Assembly (NCBI GenBank): GCA_009773755.1
Contig: WSZJ01000008.1
Location: forward strand, 9,160-73,159
From: Planctomycetota bacterium
GTDB lineage: Bacteria > Planctomycetota > MHYJ01 > WSZJ01
Direction: 5' to 3'
DNA length: 64,000 nt
A program made the translations under genes and the position numbers. This document shows, one piece after another, positions 4,120 through 64,000 of this stretch; positions within the stretch are counted from its first letter, which is position 1; every line of letters begins with the position of its first letter. Below the pieces are notes generated by a model, which saw nothing but the letters and a program-made list of their open reading frames with translations, was not told the origin of the DNA and did not search any database.

Positions 4120-4971
4120 CTAGCTGTGGACGCGGTTTCCGCCGGCCGCCTTGGCGCGGTACATCGCCAGGTCGGCCGCCCGGACCAGCTCGCGCGAGGA
4201 CATCCCGTCCTTCATCGTCGCGACGCCGATTGACGACGTAATCGCCGGCCCGACCTCCTGCTCGACCCGCGCGCGCAGGCGCTCCGCGGCCGTCCGCCCG
4301 GCTTCCAGCTCCACTTCCGGGAAAATGAACACGAATTCGTCCCCCCCGTAGCGGAAGGCGAGGTCCACGTGGCGGCGAAGAGTCGTCAGCGCGGCGCGCC
4401 CGACCTTCCGAAGCGCACCGTCCCCCGCCTGGTGCCCCTGTGAGTCGTTGTATTCCTTGAACCCGTCCAGATCGGCCAGCGCCATCGACAACGGGTGCTT
4501 CATCCGCTTGGCGCGCTCGACCTCCTCGACAACCCGCTCGTTGAAATGCGCACGGTTATACAGCCCGGTCAGCGAATCCGTGATCGCCAGCCGTTTGAGT
4601 TCCCGCTCCAGCCGCTTCCGCCGCCGGATGTCCTTTGAGATGCCGATCGTTCCCAGGAGCTTCCCCGACTCGTCGCGAAGCTGCGACATCGTCACCGAAA
4701 CGTCGATCGACCGGCCGTCGCGGGACTTCACGCGCGTCTCATAATCGATGACCCTCCCCTTCTTCTCGATCAGCCGGAGCAGCTTCCGCCGCTCCTCCGG
4801 CTCTTCCCAGATCCCCTCAGCGGGCTTTCCCAGGATCTCCTCCCGCTTCCAGCCGAACAGGTGTTCCGCCGCGGGATTCCACTCGGCGACATTCCCTGCC
4901 TCGTCCGTCGTGACGATGGCGTCGGCGGAGTGCTCGAGGATCGCTCGCAAGTAGGCTTCGCTTCGGAGCAT
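4120..4971 (-). CDS. PAS-domain diguanylate cyclase (GGDEF)
   Basis: A PAS-like segment (ILEHSADAIVTTDEAGNVAEWNPAAEHLFGW) is followed by a GGDEF domain (DSLTGLYNR ... RYGGDEFVFIF). The ATG at 4971 is preferred because a terminator hairpin occupies 5033-5056. Confidence 0.85.
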   Translation of the reverse strand: MLRSEAYLRAILEHSADAIVTTDEAGNVAEWNPAAEHLFGWKREEILGKPAEGIWEEPEERRKLLRLIEKKGRVIDYETRVKSRDGRSIDVSVTMSQLRDESGKLLGTIGISKDIRRRKRLERELKRLAITDSLTGLYNRAHFNERVVEEVERAKRMKHPLSMALADLDGFKEYNDSQGHQAGDGALRKVGRAALTTLRRHVDLAFRYGGDEFVFIFPEVELEAGRTAAERLRARVEQEVGPAITSSIGVATMKDGMSSRELVRAADLAMYRAKAAGGNRVHS

Positions 4972-5075: not shown

Positions 5076-5501
5076 CTAAACGAACTTCACCAGCGTCAGC
5101 TCGTTCTGAAACCCCTTCCTGTACGTGTAGTTCACTTCGTCCATCACCTCGCGCATCAGGAAAATCCCCATCTGGTGCTTTCGCTCGTTCTCCAGGTGGG
5201 CCCGCAGCTCGTTTTCCATCATTCCCGAAGAGTCGCAGTGGTTGGTGAAGTCGTCGATGACGGCCCTGAAGCGGGTCTCATCGAGGTCGATCGAGATGCG
5301 GATATCGCCCTGGCGGTTGGTGCCGCGGGCGTGGTCGATGATAGAAGCGAGGGCTTCGTCGACGGCGTGGGTGACGAGGCGTCCGTCGCGCTCGGCGAGG
5401 CCGCGTTCGGTCCACATGGCCTGAACGGCGGCGCGGATGTCGACGAGGTGGCGCGGGTCGCAGGCGAACGTCAGTTCCTTCTGGTGGGTCTTGGCCGGCA
5501 T
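5076..5501 (-). CDS. Anti-sigma regulatory factor-like Ser/Thr kinase (RsbW/SpoIIAB-type HATPase)
   Basis: 141 aa. The pattern VTHAVDEALASIIDHA ... IRISIDLDETRFRAVIDDF ... GMGIFLMREVMDEVNY resembles the HATPase_c fold of anti-sigma kinases. Confidence 0.6.
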   Translation of the reverse strand: MPAKTHQKELTFACDPRHLVDIRAAVQAMWTERGLAERDGRLVTHAVDEALASIIDHARGTNRQGDIRISIDLDETRFRAVIDDFTNHCDSSGMMENELRAHLENERKHQMGIFLMREVMDEVNYTYRKGFQNELTLVKFV

Positions 5502-11991: not shown

Positions 11992-12474
11992 AGCTTGGAA
12001 GGGGGGGACGTACTTTTGGCAACACGGAGGTCACGGAGTTCACGGAGGGCACAGAGGTAAGAAAACTGTGCCCTGCCAAATCCGGGGCAAGCGCGACTCC
12101 TTGGCCGTTGAGATAACGACGCAGTCCTTCGGTCAGCTTTCTGGCGTGAAAATTGATGAGAAGTCCCGCTGTGAGTTCGGAGAGATGCAGGTAGGTCAGG
12201 ATCTGGGCTTCGTGCACATCAATCAGTTCCTCAACAGCTTTGAGTTCGAGAATCAGACGCTTTTCGACGAGCAGGTCAATCCGGTAGCCTCTTCAATCGT
12301 GACGCCCTTGTACTGAACCGGAAGAACAACCTGTCGCTCGACTTTCAGGCCTCGCAACCTCAGTTCGTGTTGCAGACAGACCTCATAGGCCCCTTCAAGC
12401 AAACCGGGCCCAAGTACGCGATGGACTTCGATCGCGCCGCCGATCACTGCGTATGTCAGATCGTTGAGTTGCAT
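11951..12474 (-). pseudogene. GxxExxY-family (PD-(D/E)XK-like) gene interrupted by a 1-nt frameshift
   Basis: The N-terminal part (ATG 12474, MQLNDLTYAVIGGAIEVHRVLGPGLLEGAYEVCL...PVQYKGVTIEE) stops at 12253. The expected continuation GYRIDLLVEKRLILELKAVEELIDVHEAQILTYLHLSELTAGLLINFHARKL is in another frame (track ORF 11951-12217). The frames switch near 12262-12275. The distal ~50 codons read through the left repeat arm. Confidence 0.75.
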
Positions 12475-12511
12475 TTCTCTGTGACCTCCGTGGACTCCGT
12501 GACCTCCGTGT
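12022..12511. repeat. 35-nt inverted repeat (9-mer tandem units CACGGAGGT) bracketing the GxxExxY gene
   Basis: Arm 12022-12056 (ACACGGAGGTCACGGAGTTCACGGAGGGCACAGAG) matches the reverse complement of arm 12477-12511 at 33/35 positions. Confidence 0.9.
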
Positions 12512-12536: not shown

Positions 12537-14489
12537 TCAAACCGCCCCTCTCCTCTCGGCCGTCGCAACCGCCTCCATCCCCTTCGGCGTCAGCACGAGT
12601 CGCGCCTCTCCATCCGCATCGACGTACCCCGACCGGGCCAGAACTTCCATCCGCTCGCTCCAGAACGACGGCTCCCCACCCAGCCGGCGCGCGGCCTGCG
12701 TCCTCGTCAGTCGACCCGGATTGCCCGCGACCAGATTCAGGATCCGAATCGCTTCCCCATGCGGCACCACGGGTCTCGGCCCGCCGGGTAACCATGTCGA
12801 CGCGGGACCGGGGACTTCATCGATCGCCCCTTCCTCGACAAGCGCCTTCCGCGTCTCCGTCAGCCTCGACGGCCCCAATCCCTCGAGCGACCCCAGGTGG
12901 GGCGTCCGGTGCAGTCCCCTCTTCGCCGCCGGCGCAATCTGCCCGGCCAGGATCTGGTTGAGGACGATTCGCGAAATGCCGCGCGGACCGAGTTCCCTGG
13001 CCGCCGCAAGCACCGCGGCTCGCACGGCTTCGTCGTCGGGATCGCGCCGGCCTGCGTAGACCCCCATCTCCCGGGCCTGCGGATGGTCCCCGGCGGATTG
13101 CCGGCAGCTGTCGCAGTTGCGACAGTCGAGGTCGGCAGGGACGCGCTCGCCGAAGTACCTTAGAAGCGCCGCGCGTCGGCAACGGCCGCCGTCGGCCCAG
13201 GCTTCGACCGCTTCGAGACGCGCGAGATCGGCGGATTTGCGGGCGCGAAGAGACGCAAGGTCGAGGGTCAGTGGAAGGGGCGCCAGCGGGCGGCCGGGGG
13301 CGAGCAGCCCCTGTTCGATCAGCCATGCGCGGGCGGACTGCCACTTTTCCGGCGGGAATTCTCTCGGAGGAGGCGGTCCTTCATCCGACAGGAGCCGCTC
13401 GTGCACAAGCCGGATCTCCGCTTCGGTGGGATAGCGGCGCTCGATGAAGAAGTGGTGGAGCGAAGAGTCGCGCGGGCTGTGGAGCAGCCAGCACTTCGCC
13501 GGTTCGCCGTCGCGCCCTGCGCGGCCGATCTCCTGGTAATAGGCCTCGAGCGAGCCCGGGAGGTGGAGGTGGACGACGGCGCGGACGTCGGGCTTGTCGA
13601 TCCCCATGCCGAAGGCGACGGTGCCGACCACGACGCGGGCGCGGCCGCGGATCCAGGCGTCCTGATTCCGGGAGCGCTGGTCGCGCTCCATTCCGCCGTG
13701 ATACGGGACGGCTGAGATGCCGCGTTCCACGAGGGCCGTCGCGACGTCCACCGTGTCCTTCTGGCGGCCGACATAGGCGATCGCCGACCCCTCGAGGCCG
13801 AGCTCGCGCGCCGCGGCGTCGATCTTCTTCTCCTCGGGGACCCTTTTTGATCCCAGGAACAGGTTTGGCCGGTCGAACGGGTTCACGATCACGCACGGCG
13901 ATCGCAAGCCCAGCCGTTCCACGATCTCCGCGCGCACGCGTGGCGTCGCCGTCGCCGTGAGCGCCAGCGTCGCCCCCGCCCCGAGCGCCGCCGCGTGGGC
14001 CGACAGCCCGAGATAGTCAGGGCGGAAATCGTGCCCCCAGTGCGAAATGCAGTGCGCCTCGTCGACGACAAAACGCGCGACGCCGGCGCGGCGAAGCGCT
14101 GCGACGGTGCCGGGAATTGCAAGGCGTTCCGGTGAAAGGTAGAGCAGCCTCAGGCGCCCGGCTGCCGCCTCCCGGATCCGCCTCATTCCCTCCCCCGCCG
14201 GCAGATGCGAGTGGATCTCCGCGGCTCCCTGGATGCCTCTTCGCCTCAACCCGTCCACCTGGTCCTTCATGAGCGCGATAAGGGGGGAAACGACGACCGT
14301 GAGTCCGGGCTTGAGCAGCGCCGGCAGCTGGTAGCAGAGGGACTTGCCGCCGCCGGTCGGAAGGATGCCGAGGGCGTCGCGGGCGTCGAGGAGGGCCTCG
14401 ACGAGGGGTTTCTGGCCGGGGAGGAAGCGGTCGTAGCCGAAGAGCCGCTTCAATTCGTCTTCGACGTTCATGCATCCATTATATGACAT
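12537..14489 (-). CDS. recQ: ATP-dependent DNA helicase RecQ
   Basis: Motifs FGYDRFLPGQ, LPTGGGKSLCYQLPA, DEAHCISHWGHDFRPDY, VATVAFGMGIDKPDVR and a zinc-binding Cys cluster, plus a C-terminal winged-helix-like extension. Confidence 0.9.
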   Translation of the reverse strand: MSYNGCMNVEDELKRLFGYDRFLPGQKPLVEALLDARDALGILPTGGGKSLCYQLPALLKPGLTVVVSPLIALMKDQVDGLRRRGIQGAAEIHSHLPAGEGMRRIREAAAGRLRLLYLSPERLAIPGTVAALRRAGVARFVVDEAHCISHWGHDFRPDYLGLSAHAAALGAGATLALTATATPRVRAEIVERLGLRSPCVIVNPFDRPNLFLGSKRVPEEKKIDAAARELGLEGSAIAYVGRQKDTVDVATALVERGISAVPYHGGMERDQRSRNQDAWIRGRARVVVGTVAFGMGIDKPDVRAVVHLHLPGSLEAYYQEIGRAGRDGEPAKCWLLHSPRDSSLHHFFIERRYPTEAEIRLVHERLLSDEGPPPPREFPPEKWQSARAWLIEQGLLAPGRPLAPLPLTLDLASLRARKSADLARLEAVEAWADGGRCRRAALLRYFGERVPADLDCRNCDSCRQSAGDHPQAREMGVYAGRRDPDDEAVRAAVLAAARELGPRGISRIVLNQILAGQIAPAAKRGLHRTPHLGSLEGLGPSRLTETRKALVEEGAIDEVPGPASTWLPGGPRPVVPHGEAIRILNLVAGNPGRLTRTQAARRLGGEPSFWSERMEVLARSGYVDADGEARLVLTPKGMEAVATAERRGAV

Positions 14490-14542
14490 GGTGCATATAT
14501 GTCAAGGGGGGCGGTTGAGAATACTGATGCGGACGATGCCGT

Positions 14543-15748
14543 TCACTTTGCCTGGCGCAGCGCCCTTGAGAACACGCCGGCGAGCCCGACCATGGCCCCG
14601 ATTCCTGCGCCGAGGAAGAGGGCCGGGGCGCCTATGCGGTCGCCGAGCCAGCCGGTGGCGAGGACGGAGAGCGAGGTGAAGCCGATCACGGTCAGCTGGA
14701 CGAGGGAAAAGGCCTGGGCCTGCATCTCGCGCGGAATCTGCTCCTGCACCAGGACGGTGCGCGGCACGGTGATGAGCGGGATCGTCAGGCCGTGCGCGAA
14801 AACCGCGAAGCACAGAAGCGGGAAGGAGCGGATCCAGAAGAAGGGGATGTAGGTCACGCCGTCGAGGAACATCCCGAGCAGCAACAGCTTCCCTTTCGGC
14901 AGGAAAAAGGTCGCCCGGCGTGCCAGCCAGATGCTGCCGGAGAACCAGCCCGCGGCGAGGCAGGCCTCGAAGATTGCCAGCTCTTTCACTCCGAGCCCGA
15001 AGGTCGTTTTCAGCAGGATCGCGCTTCCGACCATCGCCGGACCCATGATGAAGAAGTTGTCGACGGCGGTGAGGAAGAGGAGGGCGCGGAAGAGGGGGGA
15101 GCGGAGGGCGAGGGCGAGGCCTGCGGCGGCGGGGGCGGCGGCTCGCGGGGGGCGAGGGGCGGTGCGGATGAAGAACAGGCAGGCGGCCGAGAAGAGGAAT
15201 GTCGCGCCGTTGGCGGCGATGAGGGCGACCATGGTTCCCGGCTGGGCTGCCTTTTCAGCGCCGGCGGCGCCGAGGGCGGCGGCGGCGACGAGCATGCCGC
15301 CGATCATGGCGAGCTGGGTGGAGGTCTGGAGAAGGGCGTTGGCGCGAAGGAGGGCGAGGCCTTCGGCGATGTCGGGGACGAGGGCGCTCATCGCGGGCGA
15401 GAAGGCGCTGGAGAAGGTCGAAACGAGGAATGCCGCGGCGGCGAGGGTCAGCCAGGTGAGCTGGCCGGCCTGCCACAGGAACGGGATTGCGAGCAGGACG
15501 GCCGCGCGGGCGATGTCGGACGCCATCATGAGGCGCCGGCGGTCGACGCGGTCGGCGAGCATGCCTGCAAGCGGGCTGAGCAGCAGGAACGGGACGGTCG
15601 CGGCGAACCGCACGAGCCCCGCGCGGCCGCCGCCAACGCCCTCGGGGCTGAGCGCGAGGACGAGGAACACGAGCACGGCCGACAGCAGGGCGTCCCCCGC
15701 CTGCGACACGAACTGCCCGAGCCAGAGGAGGGCGAAATTGCGGCGCAT
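14543..15748 (-). CDS. MFS transporter
   Basis: The ATG at 15748 (MRRNFALLWLGQFVSQAGD) starts ~401 aa with about 12 hydrophobic segments and the MFS loop motif GMLADRVDRRR. The upstream part of the 616-aa track ORF is Arg/Pro-rich and overlaps the next gene. Confidence 0.8.
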   Translation of the reverse strand: MRRNFALLWLGQFVSQAGDALLSAVLVFLVLALSPEGVGGGRAGLVRFAATVPFLLLSPLAGMLADRVDRRRLMMASDIARAAVLLAIPFLWQAGQLTWLTLAAAAFLVSTFSSAFSPAMSALVPDIAEGLALLRANALLQTSTQLAMIGGMLVAAAALGAAGAEKAAQPGTMVALIAANGATFLFSAACLFFIRTAPRPPRAAAPAAAGLALALRSPLFRALLFLTAVDNFFIMGPAMVGSAILLKTTFGLGVKELAIFEACLAAGWFSGSIWLARRATFFLPKGKLLLLGMFLDGVTYIPFFWIRSFPLLCFAVFAHGLTIPLITVPRTVLVQEQIPREMQAQAFSLVQLTVIGFTSLSVLATGWLGDRIGAPALFLGAGIGAMVGLAGVFSRALRQAK

Positions 15749-24496: not shown

Positions 24497-25503
24497 CGCG
24501 GCCCCTCTTCGAGCGCTATCCCAAGCTCCTGGCCGCGGCCCCGATCGTCGAGATCGGCGCGTTTCCCACGCCGGTCGCGCCGCTTAAGTCCCTCGGCGCC
24601 GCGTGGGGAGTCGATCTCTGGGTGAAGCGGGACGACGTGACGGGCGAAGACTTCGGCGGAAACAAAGTCCGCAAACTCGAGTTTCTGCTGGCCGACGCAA
24701 AGGCGCGCGCCGAGCGGATCTGGGCCTACGCGGTGACGGGCTCGAACTGGGCAGTCGCCGTCGCCCACTACGGAAAGCGCTTCGGCATCCCCGTCGATCT
24801 TCTGCTCTTCAAGCGCCCGCTCAACCCGTACCTCAAGAAGAACCTCGAGCTCGCGCGGGGACTGGCGCGCTCTTCAAAGGTGACCCGGAGCGTCGCCACG
24901 ATCCCCTTCCACGGCCTCGTGCAACTCGTCTCGAACCTCCGGACCTACGTGATGCCGCCGGGCGGTTCCTCGGCGCTGTCGACGCTCGGCTACATCAATG
25001 CGGGGCTGGAGCTCGCGGCGCAGGTGAAGTCCGGCGAGTTGCCGCGTCCGGACGTAGTTGTAGTGGCGCTGGGGACGGGCGGCACGCTGGCCGGCGTTCA
25101 CGCAGGGCTCCGGCTCGCGGAGTTGAATGCGGAAGTCATCGGCGTCCGCGTCGCGGACCGGATCATTTCGAACGCGACGTTCACCGCGCGCATCGCCCGC
25201 CGCGCGACGGCGCTCCTCGCCCGCCGCTCCGGCGACGCTTCCGCCGCCATCGCCGTCCGCGCCCGCGACCTCCGTATCGTTCACGAGTTCATAGGAAAAG
25301 GATACGGAATCGCGACTCCCGCCGGAGATGAAGCGGCACGCGAACTCGAGGAACGGGAAGGACTGAAGGCCGAGAGCACCTATACGGCGAAGGCGCTCGC
25401 GGCGGTGAAGGCGATGGCGCCGGAATTTCGCGGGAAGCGCGTGCTTTTCTGGCTGACGTGCAACAGCCGCCCGATTGAGGGACTGGTGGTTCGGCACTCC
25501 TGA
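24484..25503 (+). CDS. ACC deaminase / D-cysteine desulfhydrase family PLP-dependent enzyme
   Basis: The ATG at 24484 overlaps the upstream gene by 13 nt. Motifs WVKRDDVTGEDFGGNKVRKLEFLL and GTGGTLAGV are present. Confidence 0.8.
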   Translation: MAGVTRPLFERYPKLLAAAPIVEIGAFPTPVAPLKSLGAAWGVDLWVKRDDVTGEDFGGNKVRKLEFLLADAKARAERIWAYAVTGSNWAVAVAHYGKRFGIPVDLLLFKRPLNPYLKKNLELARGLARSSKVTRSVATIPFHGLVQLVSNLRTYVMPPGGSSALSTLGYINAGLELAAQVKSGELPRPDVVVVALGTGGTLAGVHAGLRLAELNAEVIGVRVADRIISNATFTARIARRATALLARRSGDASAAIAVRARDLRIVHEFIGKGYGIATPAGDEAARELEEREGLKAESTYTAKALAAVKAMAPEFRGKRVLFWLTCNSRPIEGLVVRHS

Positions 25504-25584
25504 TTCCGTGGGTCGCGCCCTTCGAAAGCGTCCCACGAAATCAAAGCTGACTCACCACCCGGCGGCCCGGCATAGAATCGGCGC

Positions 25585-25893
25585 GTGAACCTTTTCCTGC
25601 GCGGCACGCTCATGGCCGTCACGTGGATCGCCGTCGCCGGCGGCGTGGTGTGGGTAGCTTTGAGGTGGACCAACGCGATCGGTGGCGTGCTGTGCGCGGG
25701 GGCGGTGCTGCTCCCGTTCGTGTACGTCATGGTCTGCACGCTCTACCCCGCCTGGGGCGACACGAAATGTCCGCGCTGCGGGAAGCCCGCGCTGCGGCGG
25801 CCGGACCCGAAGAACCCGCTTGGAGTGATCTGCGACGCGTGCGGTTACGAGGACCCCGAGCTATACCGCGCGTATCTGGACGAGATGCAGTGA
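25585..25893 (+). CDS. Small membrane protein with a C-terminal zinc-ribbon (CPRC...CDAC)
   Basis: GTG start, two hydrophobic helices, then CPRCGKPALRRPDPKNPLGVICDACG. Confidence 0.5.
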   Translation: MNLFLRGTLMAVTWIAVAGGVVWVALRWTNAIGGVLCAGAVLLPFVYVMVCTLYPAWGDTKCPRCGKPALRRPDPKNPLGVICDACGYEDPELYRAYLDEMQ

Positions 25894-26411
25894 GGGCGTA
25901 GTGGGTAGGAGGTAGGGGGTAGAAACGACCCGGCGTTCAGCCGCGCGCTTCCTGCGCGTCGCGTTCCGCCTCGAAGACGGCCAGGCGGGGGTAGGTCAGG
26001 TCGAAATGATGATCCCCAGTCGTCCAGTGCAGGACGATAAAGTGGTGGATGAGGTCCGACACCAGGAGTGCGACGCCGATGCGCATCGCCCAGACGATCG
26101 GCCAACCGTCATATGGTACGGCGAGCGCGCCGACCGAGGTTGCTGCGCCGACGTAGCCATGATGGATGCGTACGCCGAGCGTCAGCGGGGCGAGGAATGC
26201 GGTGTCGCGGGTCGACTGCATGTCGAGCCCCCAGCGGAAGGCGCAGGTGACGGCCTCGAACGCGGCCGTCAGGGCGACGATCCAGATCAGGTCGGTCATG
26301 ATGATCGGCAACTCCACCAGGGTGGCGACGCCGGATTCTACCGAATCCTGCCCGATGCCTCATCTGCCTTTTTGCCTTTCCTACCCCCTACCTCCTACCC
26401 ACTACCCCCTC
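25892..26411. repeat. Inverted repeat (7-mer tandem units GTAGGNG) bracketing a small membrane-protein gene
   Basis: 25898-25922 (GTAGTGGGTAGGAGGTAGGGGGTAG) is the exact reverse complement of 26381-26405. It extends to 31 nt (25892-25922 / 26381-26411) with one mismatch. Confidence 0.9.
25937..26317 (-). CDS. Hypothetical integral membrane protein (126 aa)
   Basis: Three to four hydrophobic helices and non-biased composition. No family recognised. Confidence 0.5.
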   Translation of the reverse strand: MELPIIMTDLIWIVALTAAFEAVTCAFRWGLDMQSTRDTAFLAPLTLGVRIHHGYVGAATSVGALAVPYDGWPIVWAMRIGVALLVSDLIHHFIVLHWTTGDHHFDLTYPRLAVFEAERDAQEARG

Positions 26412-26733
26412 TCCTCGAGTGGCTCACCACTTCATAAGTCTCGAGCGCATTGGCCACTTTCAAGACCCCATGCGGCGCCGGCTTCCCGGACTCCTTCGCC
26501 CTCTGGTGCCCCTTCTCAAACGCCTGCGACTTCGTCCACGCCTCGAACTCCTCTTTCGAATTCCAGTGCGACATCGAGATCAGCCGGCGCGGATTCTCGG
26601 CGCATTTGAGGAACGCGAAGGACAGGAAGCCCGGCTGCTGGTCGACCAGCCCGGACCGCTTCAGGAACATGGCTTCGAGATTCTGCGCCGAAGCGTCGTC
26701 TTCGCAGGTGAAGACGTTCATGGCGACGAACAT
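26395..26733 (-). CDS. Antibiotic-biosynthesis-monooxygenase (ABM) domain protein
   Basis: 112 aa with a ferredoxin-like ABM pattern (FLKRSGLVDQQPGFLSFAFLK...SMSHWNSKEEFEAW). The last residues (RRGGSG) are encoded by the repeat arm. Confidence 0.65.
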   Translation of the reverse strand: MFVAMNVFTCEDDASAQNLEAMFLKRSGLVDQQPGFLSFAFLKCAENPRRLISMSHWNSKEEFEAWTKSQAFEKGHQRAKESGKPAPHGVLKVANALETYEVVSHSRRGGSG

Positions 26734-26742
26734 CGCTCCTCC

Positions 26743-27885
26743 TTACCTCGGGCGGAACAATTCGCGCGCGATGATCACGCGCTGGATCTGGCTGGTTCCT
26801 TCGTAGATCGCGAAAATCTTCGCGTCGCGCATGAGCTTTTCGACGGGGTACTCGCGCGAGTACCCGTATCCGCCGAATACCTGCACCGCATCCGTCGTTA
26901 CTTTCATGACCATGTCCGCCGCGAACGCTTTTGCGATCGCCGCCTCCTTCGCGCATTTCTCGCCCGTTTCGGGCATCAGTGCGGATCGCCACACGAGCAG
27001 GCGCGCGGCTTCGACGTTGATGGCCATGTCGGCGATCATGAAGGAGATCCCCTGCTGCTCGTAGAGCGGCTTTCCGAACGCCTTTCGTTCGGTGGCGTAC
27101 TTGATCGACTCCTCCATCGCGCGGCGGGCGACGCCGACCGCGATCGCGGAGATCGCCGGGCGCGAACGGTCGAAAACACGCATCGCAATCGAGAATCCGT
27201 CGCCTTCCTTCCCGAGCAGGTTGGCTCTCGGGATGTGGACGTCCTCGAAGTGCATCGAGACGGTGTCGCTGGCGCGCTGGCCCATCTTGTCTTCCTTCTT
27301 GCCGACGCGCACGCCCTTGGCGCCGCGCTCGACGAGGAAGCACGACATGCCGCCGTAGCGCGCGGCTTTGTCGGTGTAGGCGAAGACGCAGTAGAAGTCG
27401 GCGACGGAGCCGTTGGTGATGAACTGCTTCGAGCCGTTGATGACGTAGGAATCGCCGTCCCGCTTCGCCGTGGTCTGGATTCCGGCCACGTCGCTCCCCG
27501 CCTCAGGCTCCGACAGCGCGTAAGCTCCGCGCCAGCCCTCGACGATCTTCGGCAGGAACTTCTTCTTGGTCTCCTCCGAGCCGCTCAACAGAATCGGCCA
27601 GTTCGAGAGATTGTTCACTTCCATCGACGCCGCCACGCCGCTGCACGCCCAGCCGAGCTCCTCGTTGATCAGCACCTCCTCCATCAGTCCAAGTCCGGTC
27701 CCGCCGTATTCCGCGGGGATGTTGACATTGAGGAGGCCGATTTCCAGGGCCTTGCGGAATATCTCGTGCGGAAACTCGTGGGTTTCATCGAACTTGCGGG
27801 CGAGCGGCAGGATCTCAGTCTGTGCGAATTTTTTCGCGAGCTCGCGGATTTCCTTCTGCTCTTCCGTCAGGGAAAAATCGACCAT
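26743..27885 (-). CDS. Acyl-CoA dehydrogenase
   Basis: The ATG at 27885 (MVDFSLTEEQ) starts the gene. Motifs ALSEPEAGSD, GSKQFITNG, QVFGGYGYSREYPVEKLMRDAKI and YEGTSQIQR are present. Confidence 0.9.
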   Translation of the reverse strand: MVDFSLTEEQKEIRELAKKFAQTEILPLARKFDETHEFPHEIFRKALEIGLLNVNIPAEYGGTGLGLMEEVLINEELGWACSGVAASMEVNNLSNWPILLSGSEETKKKFLPKIVEGWRGAYALSEPEAGSDVAGIQTTAKRDGDSYVINGSKQFITNGSVADFYCVFAYTDKAARYGGMSCFLVERGAKGVRVGKKEDKMGQRASDTVSMHFEDVHIPRANLLGKEGDGFSIAMRVFDRSRPAISAIAVGVARRAMEESIKYATERKAFGKPLYEQQGISFMIADMAINVEAARLLVWRSALMPETGEKCAKEAAIAKAFAADMVMKVTTDAVQVFGGYGYSREYPVEKLMRDAKIFAIYEGTSQIQRVIIARELFRPR

Positions 27886-34585: not shown

Positions 34586-34768
34586 GCGGGCAGGCGGGCA
34601 AGCGGGCGGGAAAGGCTGCGGGCGTAAGGGCTGCGGGCGGGCGGGCAGGCGGGCGGGCGAAAGGACCAGCGGGCGGGCGGGCAAGCGGGCAAGCGAAAGA
34701 AAAGACGACGTCCGAAATCCGCAGGCCGTTTTTTTTCGCCCGTCCGCCCGCTCGCCCGTCCGCCCGCG
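34586..34768. repeat. G-rich octamer (GCGGGCRR) tandem arrays in three blocks, plus one inverted C-rich block
   Basis: The G-rich blocks are at 34586-34610, 34615-34659 and 34667-34695, separated by GAAAGG-like linkers. The C-rich partner is at 34737-34768. The element lies in the divergent hpnC / peroxiredoxin intergenic region. Confidence 0.85.
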
Positions 34769-38680: not shown

Positions 38681-38860
38681 GGAAAAACGGCAACGACAAA
38701 TCCCAAATCCCAACTCCAACTCCAAATCCCAAGGTGCTGATTGCACGAACGGTGAGGCCTGGGAACCCGGAGCAAATCTCTAGAGGTACACCTTGTTCAA
38801 CGGCTTTTTGGGATTTAGGGTTGGAGTTGGGATTTGGGGTTGTCCTGGTCGTTTTCCCAC
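38681..38860. repeat. Imperfect inverted repeat of AAATCCC/AACTCC units with a 75-nt spacer
   Basis: The core arms are 38696-38732 (ACAAATCCCAAATCCCAACTCCAACTCCAAATCCCAA) and 38808-38843 (TTGGGATTTAGGGTTGGAGTTGGGATTTGGGGTTGT). The flanks GGGAAAAACGGCAACG and CCTGGTCGTTTTCCC are partly complementary. The element sits between the lysS stop and the permease start. Confidence 0.85.
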
Positions 38861-50082: not shown

Positions 50083-50264
50083 CCGTTCCCTTTCCCTTTC
50101 CCTTTCCCGTTCCCGTTCCCGACTGCGACGGCGCAGCGCGCACCCGCTTTGATCTCTCGCGCCGCAAATGACCCGACGCCCTTAATCTTCGCCGGCGTTG
50201 ACGCTTGGAGAATTCGGTGCCTTGTCGCAATCGGGAAAGGGAACGGGAAAGGGAAAGGGAACGG
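50083..50264. repeat. Inverted repeat of CCCTTT/CCCGTT hexamers with a 108-nt spacer
   Basis: The arms are 50083-50122 (CCGTTCCCTTTCCCTTTCCCTTTCCCGTTCCCGTTCCCGA) and 50231-50264 (TCGGGAAAGGGAACGGGAAAGGGAAAGGGAACGG), with 6 versus 5 units. The element lies between the FHA gene stop and the radical SAM gene start. Confidence 0.9.
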
Positions 50265-57743: not shown

Positions 57744-57773
57744 CCCTTTCCCTTTCCCGTTCCCTTTCCCGCC
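57744..57773. repeat. Solo CCCTTT/CCCGTT hexamer tract filling the thiS-thiG spacer
   Basis: The sequence is CCCTTTCCCTTTCCCGTTCCCTTTCCCGCC. It uses the same unit family as the arms at 50083-50264 and the tract at 63244-63279. No inverted partner lies nearby. Confidence 0.85.
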
Positions 57774-58059: not shown

Positions 58060-59502
58060 ATGGATTGCAAGGGGTCCAAGAGCTGCATGAACCCGTTCGC
58101 GCCCTTCCTCCTCGCCATCATTCTCTGTTCCTGCGCCGCTCAGGAATCGCACGATGCCCTCGATTCGAAAACGTCGGAGACCCGGCGACGCATTGACGCC
58201 AGGATCGCCCGGGCGGAATCGGCAATCGCCAAATCCGTGGCGGAGTCGAACGCTTCGCCGAGCGTCGTGTCTCCCGAAAAGACGCGGGCTTCCCTCGTCG
58301 AGTACGACGCCCTGTCCGAGGTCGATCTGGTCGAGCCGGCGGAAGACGCGACCGTCTCCGGCTGGATCATTCGACTCGGCGATGCGACCGGGAGCGGATC
58401 GCGAAAGGCGTGGCAGAAACTTCTGGAGCAGGGTCTTCGAGTGGCCGGCCGTCTGCAGGAGGCGTCGCGCGAGGATTCGCTGAGCGGCATTCAGGCGTCG
58501 TCACTTCTCGACGTCATGGATCCTGAGATCACGGAGGGCTGGTGCCGCGACGGGCTCGCGGGCTGGGGGCTGATCGAAAATGGAAGCGGCTTCCTTGCCT
58601 GGACCGGCGATCCCCCTCGCACTCTCGTCCGCATTGCGACATCGAGCGGCGAGACAGTCTGGTCGGTGACCGAGCAAGCTCTTACGGACATTGTGGGAGG
58701 AAATGGCGAAATCTGGTGGAACCCAAGGCAATGCCCGGAGCTGGACTCCCTGACTCACCGGTACATTCTGGTTGATCGTGGCGCGCTTCGAATTGAGGTG
58801 GATGGAATCACCGGAAAACTCGAGGCCACTCGGGGCTTCCGACGCGATTTCGAAGTCCCGCTACCACCAGAGGTGTCGTCGGATCGCGCTTCGCTGACTC
58901 GAAGATTCTCGGACGGAGTAGTCGTAATGTGCCGCAAGGACGGCGCCTGGATCCGAAGCGCAGGCCGCTCAAGTTGGAACGACTTGACGGTTGGCTCCTA
59001 TCGAAAACATGCTCTTGACGTGGGCGTGACGCCGTTTCGCATCTTGGTTCTTTACCAGGACCGCCTACTCCTCTACGACCGAGCGAACTTCAAGTTGCTC
59101 GAAGAGACGATCCCGATCCGGGACGCCCGTTGGATGAGCGTGCAGGTTCAGGAAGGACTGGTCTTCCTCGGCGCCCCGGGGTGGACTTCGTTCGGCGTGC
59201 TCGGTGGGAGCCTCCCGCGGCCTCTCGGCCGTAGCCGCGCTTACACGGGACGGATGGTCGCGATGACCGGCGATCCGGATGGCCGCTGGGTTGCCGCGGC
59301 CGACAGAGAGGGTCTTATCCGCGTTTTCCTCGGGGCGACGCTCGAACGCATCGCGACGTTGGAAAGCGGGATGCGAATTCAGCGCCTTGAGTTCGTCGCT
59401 GATCCGCCTACGCTCGTGGCAATCTCGGCGACTTCAGATTGGCCAGAAAAGGTTCGCATTCGGACCTGGAACTTCGATGCGAGCACCACCGCCAAAAAAT
59501 GA
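58060..59502 (+). CDS. Hypothetical lipoprotein (480 aa)
   Basis: Signal peptide with a lipobox-like LAIILCSC. The C-terminal part has WD40/beta-propeller-like strands (GRWVAAADREGLIRVF). G+C is lower than in the neighbours. Confidence 0.55.
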   Translation: MDCKGSKSCMNPFAPFLLAIILCSCAAQESHDALDSKTSETRRRIDARIARAESAIAKSVAESNASPSVVSPEKTRASLVEYDALSEVDLVEPAEDATVSGWIIRLGDATGSGSRKAWQKLLEQGLRVAGRLQEASREDSLSGIQASSLLDVMDPEITEGWCRDGLAGWGLIENGSGFLAWTGDPPRTLVRIATSSGETVWSVTEQALTDIVGGNGEIWWNPRQCPELDSLTHRYILVDRGALRIEVDGITGKLEATRGFRRDFEVPLPPEVSSDRASLTRRFSDGVVVMCRKDGAWIRSAGRSSWNDLTVGSYRKHALDVGVTPFRILVLYQDRLLLYDRANFKLLEETIPIRDARWMSVQVQEGLVFLGAPGWTSFGVLGGSLPRPLGRSRAYTGRMVAMTGDPDGRWVAAADREGLIRVFLGATLERIATLESGMRIQRLEFVADPPTLVAISATSDWPEKVRIRTWNFDASTTAKK

Positions 59503-59532: not shown

Positions 59533-59546
59533 GTCGTTCCTGCCTG

Positions 59547-59606
59547 CTACCTCCTACCAACTCCCCACTCCTCCCTACTCAATCCTCACCACTCCCAACT
59601 CCCAAC
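59547..59606. repeat. C/T-rich ~7-nt periodic tract (CTACCTC-like units), solo
   Basis: The sequence is CTACCTCCTACCAACTCCCCACTCCTCCCTACTCAATCCTCACCACTCCCAACTCCCAACC, in the convergent intergenic region before the rpsU stop. Its first units resemble the 26381-26405 arm. Confidence 0.7.
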
Positions 59607-59611
59607 CGGCC

Positions 59612-62685: not shown

Positions 62686-62783
62686 GAACGAAAAACGAAA
62701 AACAAAAAACGAAAAGAAAACGACCGCGGTCGCTGTACTTTTCGTTTTTCGTTTTTCGTTTTTTGTTTTTCGTTTCGTTGTTC
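62686..62783. repeat. A/T-rich imperfect inverted repeat of CGAAAAA units
   Basis: The left arm is 62686-62716 (GAACGAAAAACGAAAAACAAAAAACGAAAAG). The right arm is 62738-62783 (CTTTTCGTTTTTCGTTTTTCGTTTTTTGTTTTTCGTTTCGTTGTTC). The ~21-nt spacer contains CGACCGCGGTCG. The element lies in the mgtE leader. Confidence 0.85.
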
Positions 62784-63201: not shown

Positions 63202-64000
63202 CTATTTCGACTTCCCCTCGGCCCCGCCTTGATCCGCGCCGTTGCCTTTCCCTTTCCCTTTCCCTTGCCCTTTCCCGCCCGCCTCTTTCTTCTCCGTCTC
63301 GATTCTGGGAAACAGGACCGCCCCCTCCCTGACTTTATGCCCCGCCGGCAGCGCCTCCCACTTCCCCGGCAGCCGCTCCGGTTTCGCCGGCAATCCGAGT
63401 TGCTCCCGGATTTTCTCCGCTGTCGAGGGCAGGAACGGGTGCAGAAGCGCCGAAATCCGCCCGATCGCCGTCGCCAGGTTCGTCATCACGGCCGCCACGC
63501 GCCCGGCCTTCCCCAGCTTGTTCAGCGCCCAGGGCTGGCTTTCCTCGATGTACGAATTCGAGCGGCGGACCGCATCCCAGATCCTCGTCAGCGCGCCGCT
63601 CAGGTCCTGCTTATCCATCAGCGCCGCAACCTCGTTCGAACACGCTTCCATGTGCGCCACCAGATCCGCGTCGGTCCCGCCCGGCTCCGTCGTCGCGGGC
63701 ACGGCCCCGCCGCAGTACGTGTTCACCATCTTCAGCGTGCGGTGCAGCAGGTTTCCGATGTCGTTCGCGAGATCCGCGTTGTAGCGCGCGATGAACGAAT
63801 TCCACGTGAAGTCCCCGTCGCGGTCCCACGCGATCTCGCGCAGCAGGAAATACCGGAGCGCGTCCGCCCCGTGCGGCTCGATGACGTCGAACGGATCCAG
63901 CAGGTGCCCCGTCGACTTCGACATCTTTTCGCCCTCGTAGTGCACCCAGCCGTGCCCCCAGACCTGTCTGGGAAGCGGAACTCCGGCGGACAGGAGCATT
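63202..64000 (-). CDS. metG: Methionine--tRNA ligase, 5'-partial in this window (N-terminus lies beyond nt 64000)
   Basis: The KMSKS motif and anticodon-binding helices (NDIGNLLHRT..., QPWAL) are present. The normal end LFPRIE is followed by a repeat-encoded tail TEKKEAGGKGQGKGKGKGNGADQGGAEGKSK. Confidence 0.9.
   Translation of the reverse strand, partial: MLLSAGVPLPRQVWGHGWVHYEGEKMSKSTGHLLDPFDVIEPHGADALRYFLLREIAWDRDGDFTWNSFIARYNADLANDIGNLLHRTLKMVNTYCGGAVPATTEPGGTDADLVAHMEACSNEVAALMDKQDLSGALTRIWDAVRRSNSYIEESQPWALNKLGKAGRVAAVMTNLATAIGRISALLHPFLPSTAEKIREQLGLPAKPERLPGKWEALPAGHKVREGAVLFPRIETEKKEAGGKGQGKGKGKGNGADQGGAEGKSK
63244..63279. repeat. CCCTTT-type hexamer tract inside the 3' end of metG
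   Basis: The sequence is GCCTTTCCCTTTCCCTTTCCCTTGCCCTTTCCCGCC. It is translated on the minus strand as GKGQGKGKGKG. Confidence 0.85.

Follow-up and report, generated by a model that had tools for sequence, protein, structure and literature searches.

An inverted pair of heptanucleotide repeat tracts around a resident membrane-protein gene of a Planctomycetota bacterium, with a predicted RNase III-type duplex

The bracketed gene and its inverted repeat

Within the window, the 64-kb stretch of Planctomycetota DNA analysed here, a small membrane-protein gene on the minus strand (25937–26299) is enclosed between two neighbours and bracketed by an inverted repeat. On one side, a plus-strand gene (25585–25893) encodes a 102-aa membrane protein with a C-terminal CxxC...CxxC zinc ribbon; this gene is convergent with the enclosed gene and is syntenic in relatives. 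On the other side lies a minus-strand gene of the ABM family (HmuQ/IsdG-like; 26395–26733; Pfam PF03992, E-value 4e-15). The preliminary description of this DNA called the ABM gene convergent, which applies to its relation with the zinc-ribbon gene only. The enclosed gene is on the minus strand too; the ABM gene thus reads in the same direction and lies upstream of it.

The two arms of the inverted repeat enclose 452 nt and, as had been described, a single minus-strand ORF. Read from a GTG at 26317, this ORF (25937–26317) yields the 126 aa first assigned to it; the likelier start is the ATG at 26299 (MTDLIW...), and a length of 120 aa is most probable because homologues of 119–120 aa start at the equivalent ATG. 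The gene call is supported by synteny and by 83 homologues, which come mostly from Planctomycetota MAGs and whose alignment reveals the conserved motifs E15, FRFGL-LQSTRDTA, RIHHGY and SDLIHHF. An AlphaFold (AF2) model of the protein contains five helices (pLDDT 92, pTM 0.80). The protein matched no entry in Pfam, NCBIfam, PADLOC or PHROGs and none in the PDB by sequence profile, and the structural search proposed in the preliminary description, carried out with Foldseek together with the PDB profile check, returned no PDB fold match (best E-value 2). Judged by its homologues, the protein is a member of an uncharacterised conserved family.

A candidate −10 box on the minus strand is the TAGAAT hexamer at 26335–26340, which precedes the ATG by 35 nt and falls within the bracketed segment. 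It is invariant across relatives in both locus alignments (A1 and A2), and a consensus promoter scan of 25500–26800 detected no full σ70 match. The hexamer suggests that the membrane-protein gene may also have a promoter of its own. Such an invariant element inside the bracket further suggests that the gene's own mRNA would lack the 5′ arm, carry the 3′ arm only and be unable to form the stem described below. A consensus scan of the same interval (25500–26800) for intrinsic terminators found no terminator-like site on either strand.

The inverted repeat itself is real. A repeat search of the window placed the left arm at 25892–25925 (34 nt) and the right arm at 26378–26411, 452 nt apart, the right arm being the reverse complement of the left at 32 of 34 positions (94%). 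The 25-nt perfect core and the 31-nt version with one mismatch were both recovered as reported. The core, GTAGTGGGTAGGAGGTAGGGGGTAG, occupies 25898–25922 on the plus strand and 26381–26405 on the minus strand; the 31-nt version pairs 25892–25922 with 26381–26411 and is interrupted by a single mismatch (25897 C against 26406 C). Extension to 34 nt adds a second mismatch (25923 A against 26380 C), which becomes a G·U pair on the minus-strand RNA. The GTAGTGGGTAGGAGGTAGGGGGTAG core matches the 64-kb window twice and was never found in 100 dinucleotide-preserving shuffles. When only the two spacers flanking the gene are compared, their complementarity score is 28, with a maximum of 13 in 200 shuffles. 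Across the whole window, exactly five inverted repeats score at least 18 within 1.5 kb, and none did so in 10 shuffles. Four contigs from four different samples were aligned and proved 100% identical over up to 6.4 kb, with identical arms in identical orientation; an assembly artefact can therefore be dismissed. Among all sampled contigs of this genome no population variation was seen, their sequences being identical.

Both arms are tightly placed with respect to stop codons. The left arm starts within the TGA of the zinc-ribbon gene (25891–25893), and the right arm, read on the minus strand, supplies the final five codons and the TAG (26395–26397) of the ABM gene, which thus ends in ...SHSRRGGSG*; the preliminary description had both placements right. 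The tail and stop of the ABM protein are accordingly repeat-encoded, and they vary among relatives (RRGGSG*, RSGGSK*, VKGRE*, AKGKD* and GKLA*). Relative to the enclosed gene, the left arm is positioned 11 nt past the stop codon and the right arm ends 78 nt upstream of the ATG.

Tandem Repeats Finder identified both arms as period-7 arrays, with 2.7 copies in the left arm and 4.4 in the right. On the plus strand the left arm is G-rich and nearly free of C and comprises about four heptamer units (GTAGTGG, GTAGGAG, GTAGGGG and GTAG); on the strand of the enclosed gene, the 5′ arm consists of the units GTAGTGG, GTAGGAG, GTAGGGG and GTAGGAA. Each arm is nearly devoid of either C or G. Read inward from either side, both arms specify the same RNA, GAGGG(C/G)GUAGUGGGUAGGAGGUAGGGGGUAG, beginning at the stop codon. 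The repeat has a unit within the 5–11 nt of prokaryotic simple-sequence repeats and changes in unit number between relatives. Each arm is one copy of a fast-evolving simple-sequence repeat of heptanucleotides, (GGTAGNN)n, and the two copies are inverted relative to each other. An origin from REP/RAYT elements, suggested by the recurring GTAG, was ruled out for want of a multi-copy family and of any short palindrome: with up to three mismatches allowed, the arm sequence occurs just twice in the 64 kb, and the arms themselves are not palindromes.

RNA spanning both arms is predicted to fold on either strand. The minus-strand RNA has a predicted stem of 5 + 28 bp closing a 452-nt loop (z = −5.2) and the plus-strand RNA one of 5 + 25 bp closing the same loop (z = −6.8); the long-range stem is present in the minimum free energy and centroid structures of both strands.

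The gene and its arms in relatives

The preliminary description regarded the membrane-protein gene as the cargo of a cassette delimited by the arms. Comparison of orthologous loci argues otherwise, as the gene predates the arms at this locus and relatives keep it without them. Its position and orientation are unchanged in relatives at 95, 85, 85, 77 and 75% protein identity, within the shared order kinase, acyl-CoA dehydrogenase (ACAD), ABM, the gene itself, and then the convergent zinc-ribbon gene, a PALP enzyme and an FAD-binding oxidase. Synteny is held in seven relatives (L001, L004, L007, L011, L012, L016 and L017), and the kinase–ACAD–ABM–membrane protein order is still kept at 61 and 66% identity (L016 and L017). 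Orthologous pairs of ABM and zinc-ribbon genes lacking the insert were looked for and none was found; every relative examined has the membrane-protein gene in between. It had been proposed that two things together would speak against a cassette, namely relatives carrying the gene at this position without flanking repeats and a lack of other cassette-like examples in the genome. The first was observed: in L004 and L007 (75–77%) the gene is present, the arms are absent and the convergent stop codons abut, 0–2 nt apart. The arms are absent in L016 and L017 as well.

The same picture emerged from a wider survey. A flanking inverted repeat above shuffle level was detected at none of 80 homologue loci in species-representative genomes, which do not include the window's own genome and among which the best hit is at 85%. 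The best flank score among these 80 loci was 12, within the shuffle maxima of 10–13, as compared with 28 in the window. A scan of metagenome contigs for further close relatives gave homologues at no more than 53% identity. The composition of the segment is native, the interior having 65% GC and the ORF a GC3 of 0.85 in a genome of 66% GC. In sum, arms and gene are not present or absent as one unit at the orthologous site, the protein family is not recurrently flanked by inverted repeats elsewhere, and the interior is not foreign in composition. Judged from these comparisons, the membrane-protein gene is an old, vertically inherited resident, the last gene of a kinase–ACAD–ABM–membrane protein cluster. 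Because the gene is an old resident, the locus is better described as a young, lineage-specific long-range hairpin than as a mobile cassette.

The arms, in contrast to the gene, turn over rapidly. L001 (85%) has an upstream tract, AATAGTAGGTAGTGGGTAGGAGG, and no downstream tract; L012 (85%) has a downstream tract, (ACTACCG)x4, and only a decayed one upstream. In L011, which is 92% identical at the DNA level over 3.1 kb, the upstream tract has diverged (GGGGGTAGTAAATAGGTGGTAGTGGGCAGG) and the downstream tract is shorter by 14 nt, that is, by two units. The complementarity between the two spacers is at chance in 7/7 relatives (scores of 5–9, with a shuffle mean of ~7), and among the relatives compared, pairing of both arms is possible only in this genome.

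The history of the window's upstream arm can be read in part from its differences to L011 and L001: at three positions these two have the same state and the window another (AATAG in place of GGTAG, and GTAGTGG in place of GTAGGGG). With the ancestral state taken from four sequences and an assumed tree, the window's upstream arm is best read as derived at these bases, through changes from AA to GG and from T to G. Each of the three derived bases has its mirror in the window's downstream arm (alignment A2), indicating that the two arms changed in concert in this lineage. The mirrored changes, together with the exact match of irregular units, fit a templated copy better than independent substitutions, and the arms were probably homogenised by templated copying.

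Other inverted repeats in the window

Tandem repeats make up the arms of all five strong inverted repeats, the units being mutually unrelated, and each of the five begins 0–30 nt past a stop codon. In addition to the heptamer pair (25892/26378, 452-nt loop), they are located at 12022/12477 (unit CACGGAGGT, 420-nt loop), 38699/38808 (AATCCC type, 75-nt loop), 50083/50215 (CCCTTT/CCCGTT, a loop of ~76–94 nt depending on arm extension) and 62687/62738 (AACGAAA, 21-nt loop). The 10 kb past the window end contain no extra strong inverted repeat. Two features were considered as a common denominator and rejected. Shine-Dalgarno/anti-Shine-Dalgarno mimicry (GGAGG/CCTCC, present in the arms of both long units) is not common to all five inverted repeats, and a G-quadruplex likewise fails as a unifying feature, the AACGAAA arms having neither a G-quadruplex nor GGAGG/CCTCC.

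The heptamer-flanked segment had been likened to the unit at 12022–12511, which holds a frameshifted GxxExxY gene (TIGR04256, PF13366). The likeness holds for form and not for history, as the GxxExxY unit is an insertion and the membrane-protein gene a resident. Both units have 34–35-nt arms of short tandem units (9-mers in the GxxExxY unit), an interior of 420–452 nt with one minus-strand ORF, arms placed 0–30 nt from the stops of a convergent gene pair, and a polarity in which either strand starts with its G-rich arm. They differ in that the GxxExxY 5′ arm ends 2 nt before the ATG whereas the heptamer arm is 78 nt upstream of it, and in that the GxxExxY interior has 54% GC, as compared with 66% for the genome and 65% for the membrane-gene interior. 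On comparison with relatives the unit at 12022–12511 is a true insertion: in a 77% relative (L106) it is absent and the RecQ and pilin-like genes abut at their stop codons. In an 87% relative (L105) the unit is kept with only the first ~105 nt of the gene left and a loop of 117 nt; its arms have diverged to 84% complementarity and one of them is a unit shorter. The deleted L105 unit illustrates that a decay route from a long unit to a short loop exists. To see whether flanking by repeats is general, other GxxExxY loci were looked for, and none was found among 108 loci fetched or in viral contigs.

Among the short-loop hairpins, those at 50083 and 62687 correspond to clean gaps in a 77–82% relative. 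The hairpins at 38699 and 50083 present the C-rich arm first on both strands, opposite to the long units, and this opposite polarity indicates that the short hairpins are not simply decayed long units. Decay from G-first cassettes was rejected on this ground and also because the loops of these two hairpins contain no obvious gene remnant.

Origin and possible roles of the matched arms

Several known systems share features with the heptamer pair. The closest in outline are the intervening sequences (IVSs) of 23S rRNA in Coxiella burnetii and Leptospira, which likewise form a unit of ~430–520 nt with a terminal stem of ~28 bp and one small ORF. In Coxiella, the IVS is 428–444 nt long, has a 28-bp terminal stem with one mismatch and a bulge and contains one small ORF; it is excised by RNase III at this terminal inverted-repeat stem around its ~430-nt ORF-bearing interior (PMC4990558). 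A stem of ~20–30 bp around a few hundred nucleotides, characteristic of an IVS, is also what is predicted here (5 + 28 or 5 + 25 bp around 452 nt). Unlike an IVS, however, the present locus is flanked by protein-coding sequence and not by 23S rRNA, no Rfam family, rRNA included, being detected in the window at the gathering threshold. Its ORF is a resident membrane-protein gene and not of the S23p or GxxExxY type, and its arms are tandem heptamers that come and go in relatives while the gene stays.

The arms resemble long prokaryotic simple-sequence repeats, such as the heptamers of cyanobacteria and Beggiatoa, in being intergenic tandem heptamers of variable unit number (PMC4679880). The Beggiatoa genome has 169 direct repeat sets and one indirect set (PMC4679880); unlike those repeats, which are almost all direct, the two tracts here are a matched inverted pair across a gene. 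REP, BIME and REPIN elements are extragenic palindromes located just downstream of genes, often as inverted dimers and many with GTAG (PMC3733652). REPs have a GTAG or CGTC tag, stems of 5–13 bp, loops of 2–20 nt and tens to thousands of near-identical copies, whereas the arms here are present in two copies in 64 kb. Invertons share with the locus inverted repeats of tens of base pairs around a segment of a few hundred; the locus differs from them in showing a single orientation, in lacking a nearby recombinase and in having sites of its own, not ones common to several loci. Finally, the derived substitutions mirrored between the arms, and irregular units that nonetheless match perfectly, are in keeping with quasi-palindrome correction and template-switch mutation, in which a template turns imperfect inverted repeats into perfect ones (PMC8794818, PMC5453318). 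Unlike the template-switch cases analysed in PMC8794818, source and target are ~450–490 nt apart here, with no direct footprint such as a loop inversion. A literature search found no description of matched inverted tandem-repeat arms around Planctomycetota genes or GxxExxY genes.

We tentatively favour, as the best explanation, an inverted pair of heptamer tracts around a resident gene, re-copied by templating, that forms an RNase III-type duplex in read-through RNA. Repeat tracts would have arisen in both spacers in the common ancestor of a small clade (at least 85% protein identity). In all relatives sampled they have since changed by gain and loss of entire units, and one tract or the other has decayed. 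Within the lineage of the window, one arm would have been re-copied from the other, either by a template switch during replication or by conversion of one inverted copy by the other, and the re-copying would have restored the 25/25 (30/31) complementarity. A single template-switch event can produce a perfect stem (PMC8794818), although the events of that study were limited to sources and targets separated by a few bases, as compared with ~450–490 nt here. A minus-strand RNA crossing both arms would be read-through from the ABM operon, and a plus-strand RNA crossing both would be antisense read-through from the zinc-ribbon gene. Either spanning RNA could fold into a 28–33-bp duplex with the geometry of an RNase III-type substrate and be cut within the stem. 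Cleavage may then separate the membrane-gene segment from the operon transcript or destroy convergent read-through RNA. If the candidate promoter is used, the stem would act on read-through RNA and not on the primary transcript of the membrane-protein gene. Because pairing is lost in all relatives, even at 92% DNA identity, an RNA role of this kind would have to be dispensable or very recent.

The absence of pairing in every relative is evidence against a strong function, and for this reason the duplex explanation is put forward only tentatively and a neutral by-product, though doubtful, is regarded as a real possibility. Under the neutral account the origin is the same, heptamer tracts followed by a templated inverted copy, and the product has no role as RNA or DNA and will decay. 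Chance-level complementarity in 7/7 relatives, the 92% DNA identity relative L011 included, is what this account expects, as are the one-sided remnants in L001 and L012 and the whole-unit deletion in L011. Solitary tandem-repeat tracts of a comparable kind are also found at 57744–57771 and 59543–59608 of the window, and some prokaryotic genomes are rich in 5–11-nt repeats, of which heptamers are the commonest class (summarised in PMC4679880). A perfect 25-nt match of irregular units with three mirrored changes is nevertheless demanding for it, requiring either a very recent event or selection, and the start of 5/5 strong inverted repeats within 0–30 nt of a stop codon is non-random and suggests a 3′-end role or targeted insertion. 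It is unlikely that the zinc-ribbon gene (plus strand) and the ABM gene (minus strand) each independently carry a same-sense 3′ tail, a G-rich, C-free, GGAGG-containing heptamer array at the stop, so that the inverted repeat would be incidental to their convergent layout. Such tails might serve as a protein- or ribosome-binding element, or as a three-frame stop, since GGTAGNN repeated three times places TAG in every frame. The identical RNA read inward from both stop codons agrees with this, as do a similar G-rich, C-free tract in mRNA sense after the ribosomal protein S21 gene (59543–59608) and a purine-rich hexamer repeat between thiS and thiG that is conserved in a relative. Without copying, however, the 25-nt identity of irregular units is left unexplained; the three short-loop hairpins, moreover, put the C-rich or A-rich arm first in mRNA sense, and the tails are absent or decayed in relatives.

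Two further readings treat the bracketed segment as a unit that moves. Recombination between the arms might flip the 452-bp segment, switching the membrane-protein gene between the ABM-side and zinc-ribbon-side transcription units. This is very unlikely, even though the arms have the length and spacing usual for such segments. For RecA-dependent exchange, a perfect 25-bp core is close to the shortest that suffices, and position 26407, just 2 nt outside the core, is where two independent k = 31 contigs stop; this break, however, lies 2 nt beyond the expected inversion-branch point, and the arms share no 30-mer. One orientation is seen in every contig of this genome that was retrieved and in all relatives, with the qualification that a minority orientation would be hidden in a consensus assembly. 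No recombinase Pfam domain was found among the called genes between 10 kb on the zinc-ribbon side and 3 kb on the ABM side, an invertase encoded farther away being conceivable, and each inverted repeat in the window differs in sequence, unlike the sites of a shared invertase. Least credible, and highly improbable, is a mobile IVS-like cassette with the membrane-protein gene as cargo. Its appeal lies in an architecture matching both the GxxExxY unit at 12022–12511, a true insertion, and rRNA intervening sequences. Against it stand the armless gene in L004, L007, L016 and L017 within an old synteny, the 0/80 homologue loci flanked by inverted repeats, the native composition and the mere two copies of the arm sequence in the window.

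Taken together, the locus is a young, lineage-specific inverted heptamer pair around a resident gene, predicted to be capable of forming an RNase III-type duplex. For genome scans it carries a caution: a striking inverted repeat around a single gene is insufficient for calling a cassette, and here the orthologous loci put the gene first. It also offers a dated natural example of a ~30-bp long-range stem appearing around a whole gene, with the tracts present in relatives and the pairing, with its mirrored derived changes, confined to this lineage, and it bears on the origin of IVS-like stems and long RNA duplexes. A bolder and quite improbable proposal is that an active process in this lineage and some other Planctomycetota writes locus-specific, tandem-repeat-armed hairpins just past stop codons, makes the arms of IVS-like GxxExxY insertions and can bracket a resident gene, the matched arms being its fresh product and not a chance template switch. 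If true, a hairpin-writing process would convert an ordinary stretch of mRNA into a module that resembles an IVS and is excisable by RNase III. Seen alongside the GxxExxY insertion, at a distance of 14 kb, and the three short-loop hairpins, which are young as well, the heptamer pair suggests that Planctomycetota contain a little-described class of hairpins with tandem-repeat arms, and this wider class is a more interesting lead than the single locus.

The GxxExxY unit as an insertion

Comparison with related sequences shows that the GxxExxY unit at 12022-12511 is a true insertion. The unit is absent from the 77% relative (locus L106, 5932/5933), where the RecQ gene abuts the pilin-like gene; in the 87% relative (locus L105, 5960-6126), only the arms and the gene's first ~105 nt are left. 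The GC content of the unit interior is 54%, compared with 66% for the genome. The ATG of the GxxExxY gene is located 2 nt past the end of the 5' arm, in which GGAGG is present, and the window copy of the gene contains a frameshift near 12289.

The enclosed membrane protein and the right arm of its locus

The protein encoded at 25937-26299 on the minus strand, enclosed by the arms of the 25892-26411 locus, defines an uncharacterised, well-conserved family of small membrane proteins. A scan of genome contigs confirmed 228 stretches encoding the family, with hosts mainly in the Planctomycetota and also in the Pseudomonadota, Acidobacteriota and others. Alignment of the homologues revealed invariant residues that include E15, R22, H46, H47, Y49, and S81, together with a nearly invariant HH pair at 85-86. 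A confident AlphaFold model was obtained for the protein; its comparison with the PDB gave no match.

Two independent k=31 assemblies (SRR8863439 and SRR8438314) each have a contig that stops at 26407, which is 2 nt beyond the right arm's perfect core. The left and right arms of this locus have no 30-mer in common, and large-k assemblies cross the position uninterrupted. Strain heterogeneity and a minority rearrangement are both possible explanations for the k=31 ends.

Hairpins and repeat tracts elsewhere in the window

Three short-loop hairpins with tandem-repeat arms are found at 38699-38841 (arm unit of AATCCC type), 50083-50264 (CCCTTT/CCCGTT), and 62687-62775 (AACGAAA), all of them located 4-28 nt beyond a stop codon. 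The 77-82% relative (L103) has clean gaps at the positions of the latter two. In the 38699-38841 and 50083-50264 hairpins the C-rich arm comes first, on both strands; the two long units have the opposite polarity.

A CCCTTT/CCCGTT hexamer repeat also fills the thiS-thiG spacer (57744-57771), where it is purine-rich in the mRNA sense and just ahead of the thiG ATG; this repeat is kept in L103. On visual inspection, a 28-nt stretch of the repeat is identical to right-arm sequence of the 50083 hairpin (50233-50261), and arm sequences are therefore not invariably single-locus. A third array, of CCTTTC (63245-63276), is located close to the Met-tRNA synthetase gene's 3' end. At 34586-34700 and 34737-34767, tandem repeats of GCGGGCGG type form an imperfect inverted pair with a spacer of ~40 nt that contains a T8 run; this pair fell under the score threshold (18) of the inverted-repeat scan.

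A lone 66-nt G-free tract (59543-59608), G-rich in the mRNA sense, follows the ribosomal protein S21 gene and shares CTACCTCCTACC with the arms of the 25892-26411 locus. The tract adjoins a 480-aa gene (about 58060-59502; 13692-15134 in locus L108) that is convergent with the S21 gene and has no Pfam match. L103 is devoid of the 480-aa gene and has S21 next to thiS.

Tandem-repeat-armed hairpins in other genomes

Hairpins with arms of 9-10-nt tandem repeats occur in unrelated Planctomycetota genomes, at 1758-1848 of locus L030 and at 4429-4525 and 5337-5473 of locus L070. Their arm units include GCGCGGAGA, CAGGAT-containing 9-mers, and ACGCAGATG, and one of the hairpins lies ~100 nt downstream of a membrane-gene homologue. 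The phenomenon therefore extends beyond the genome of the window.
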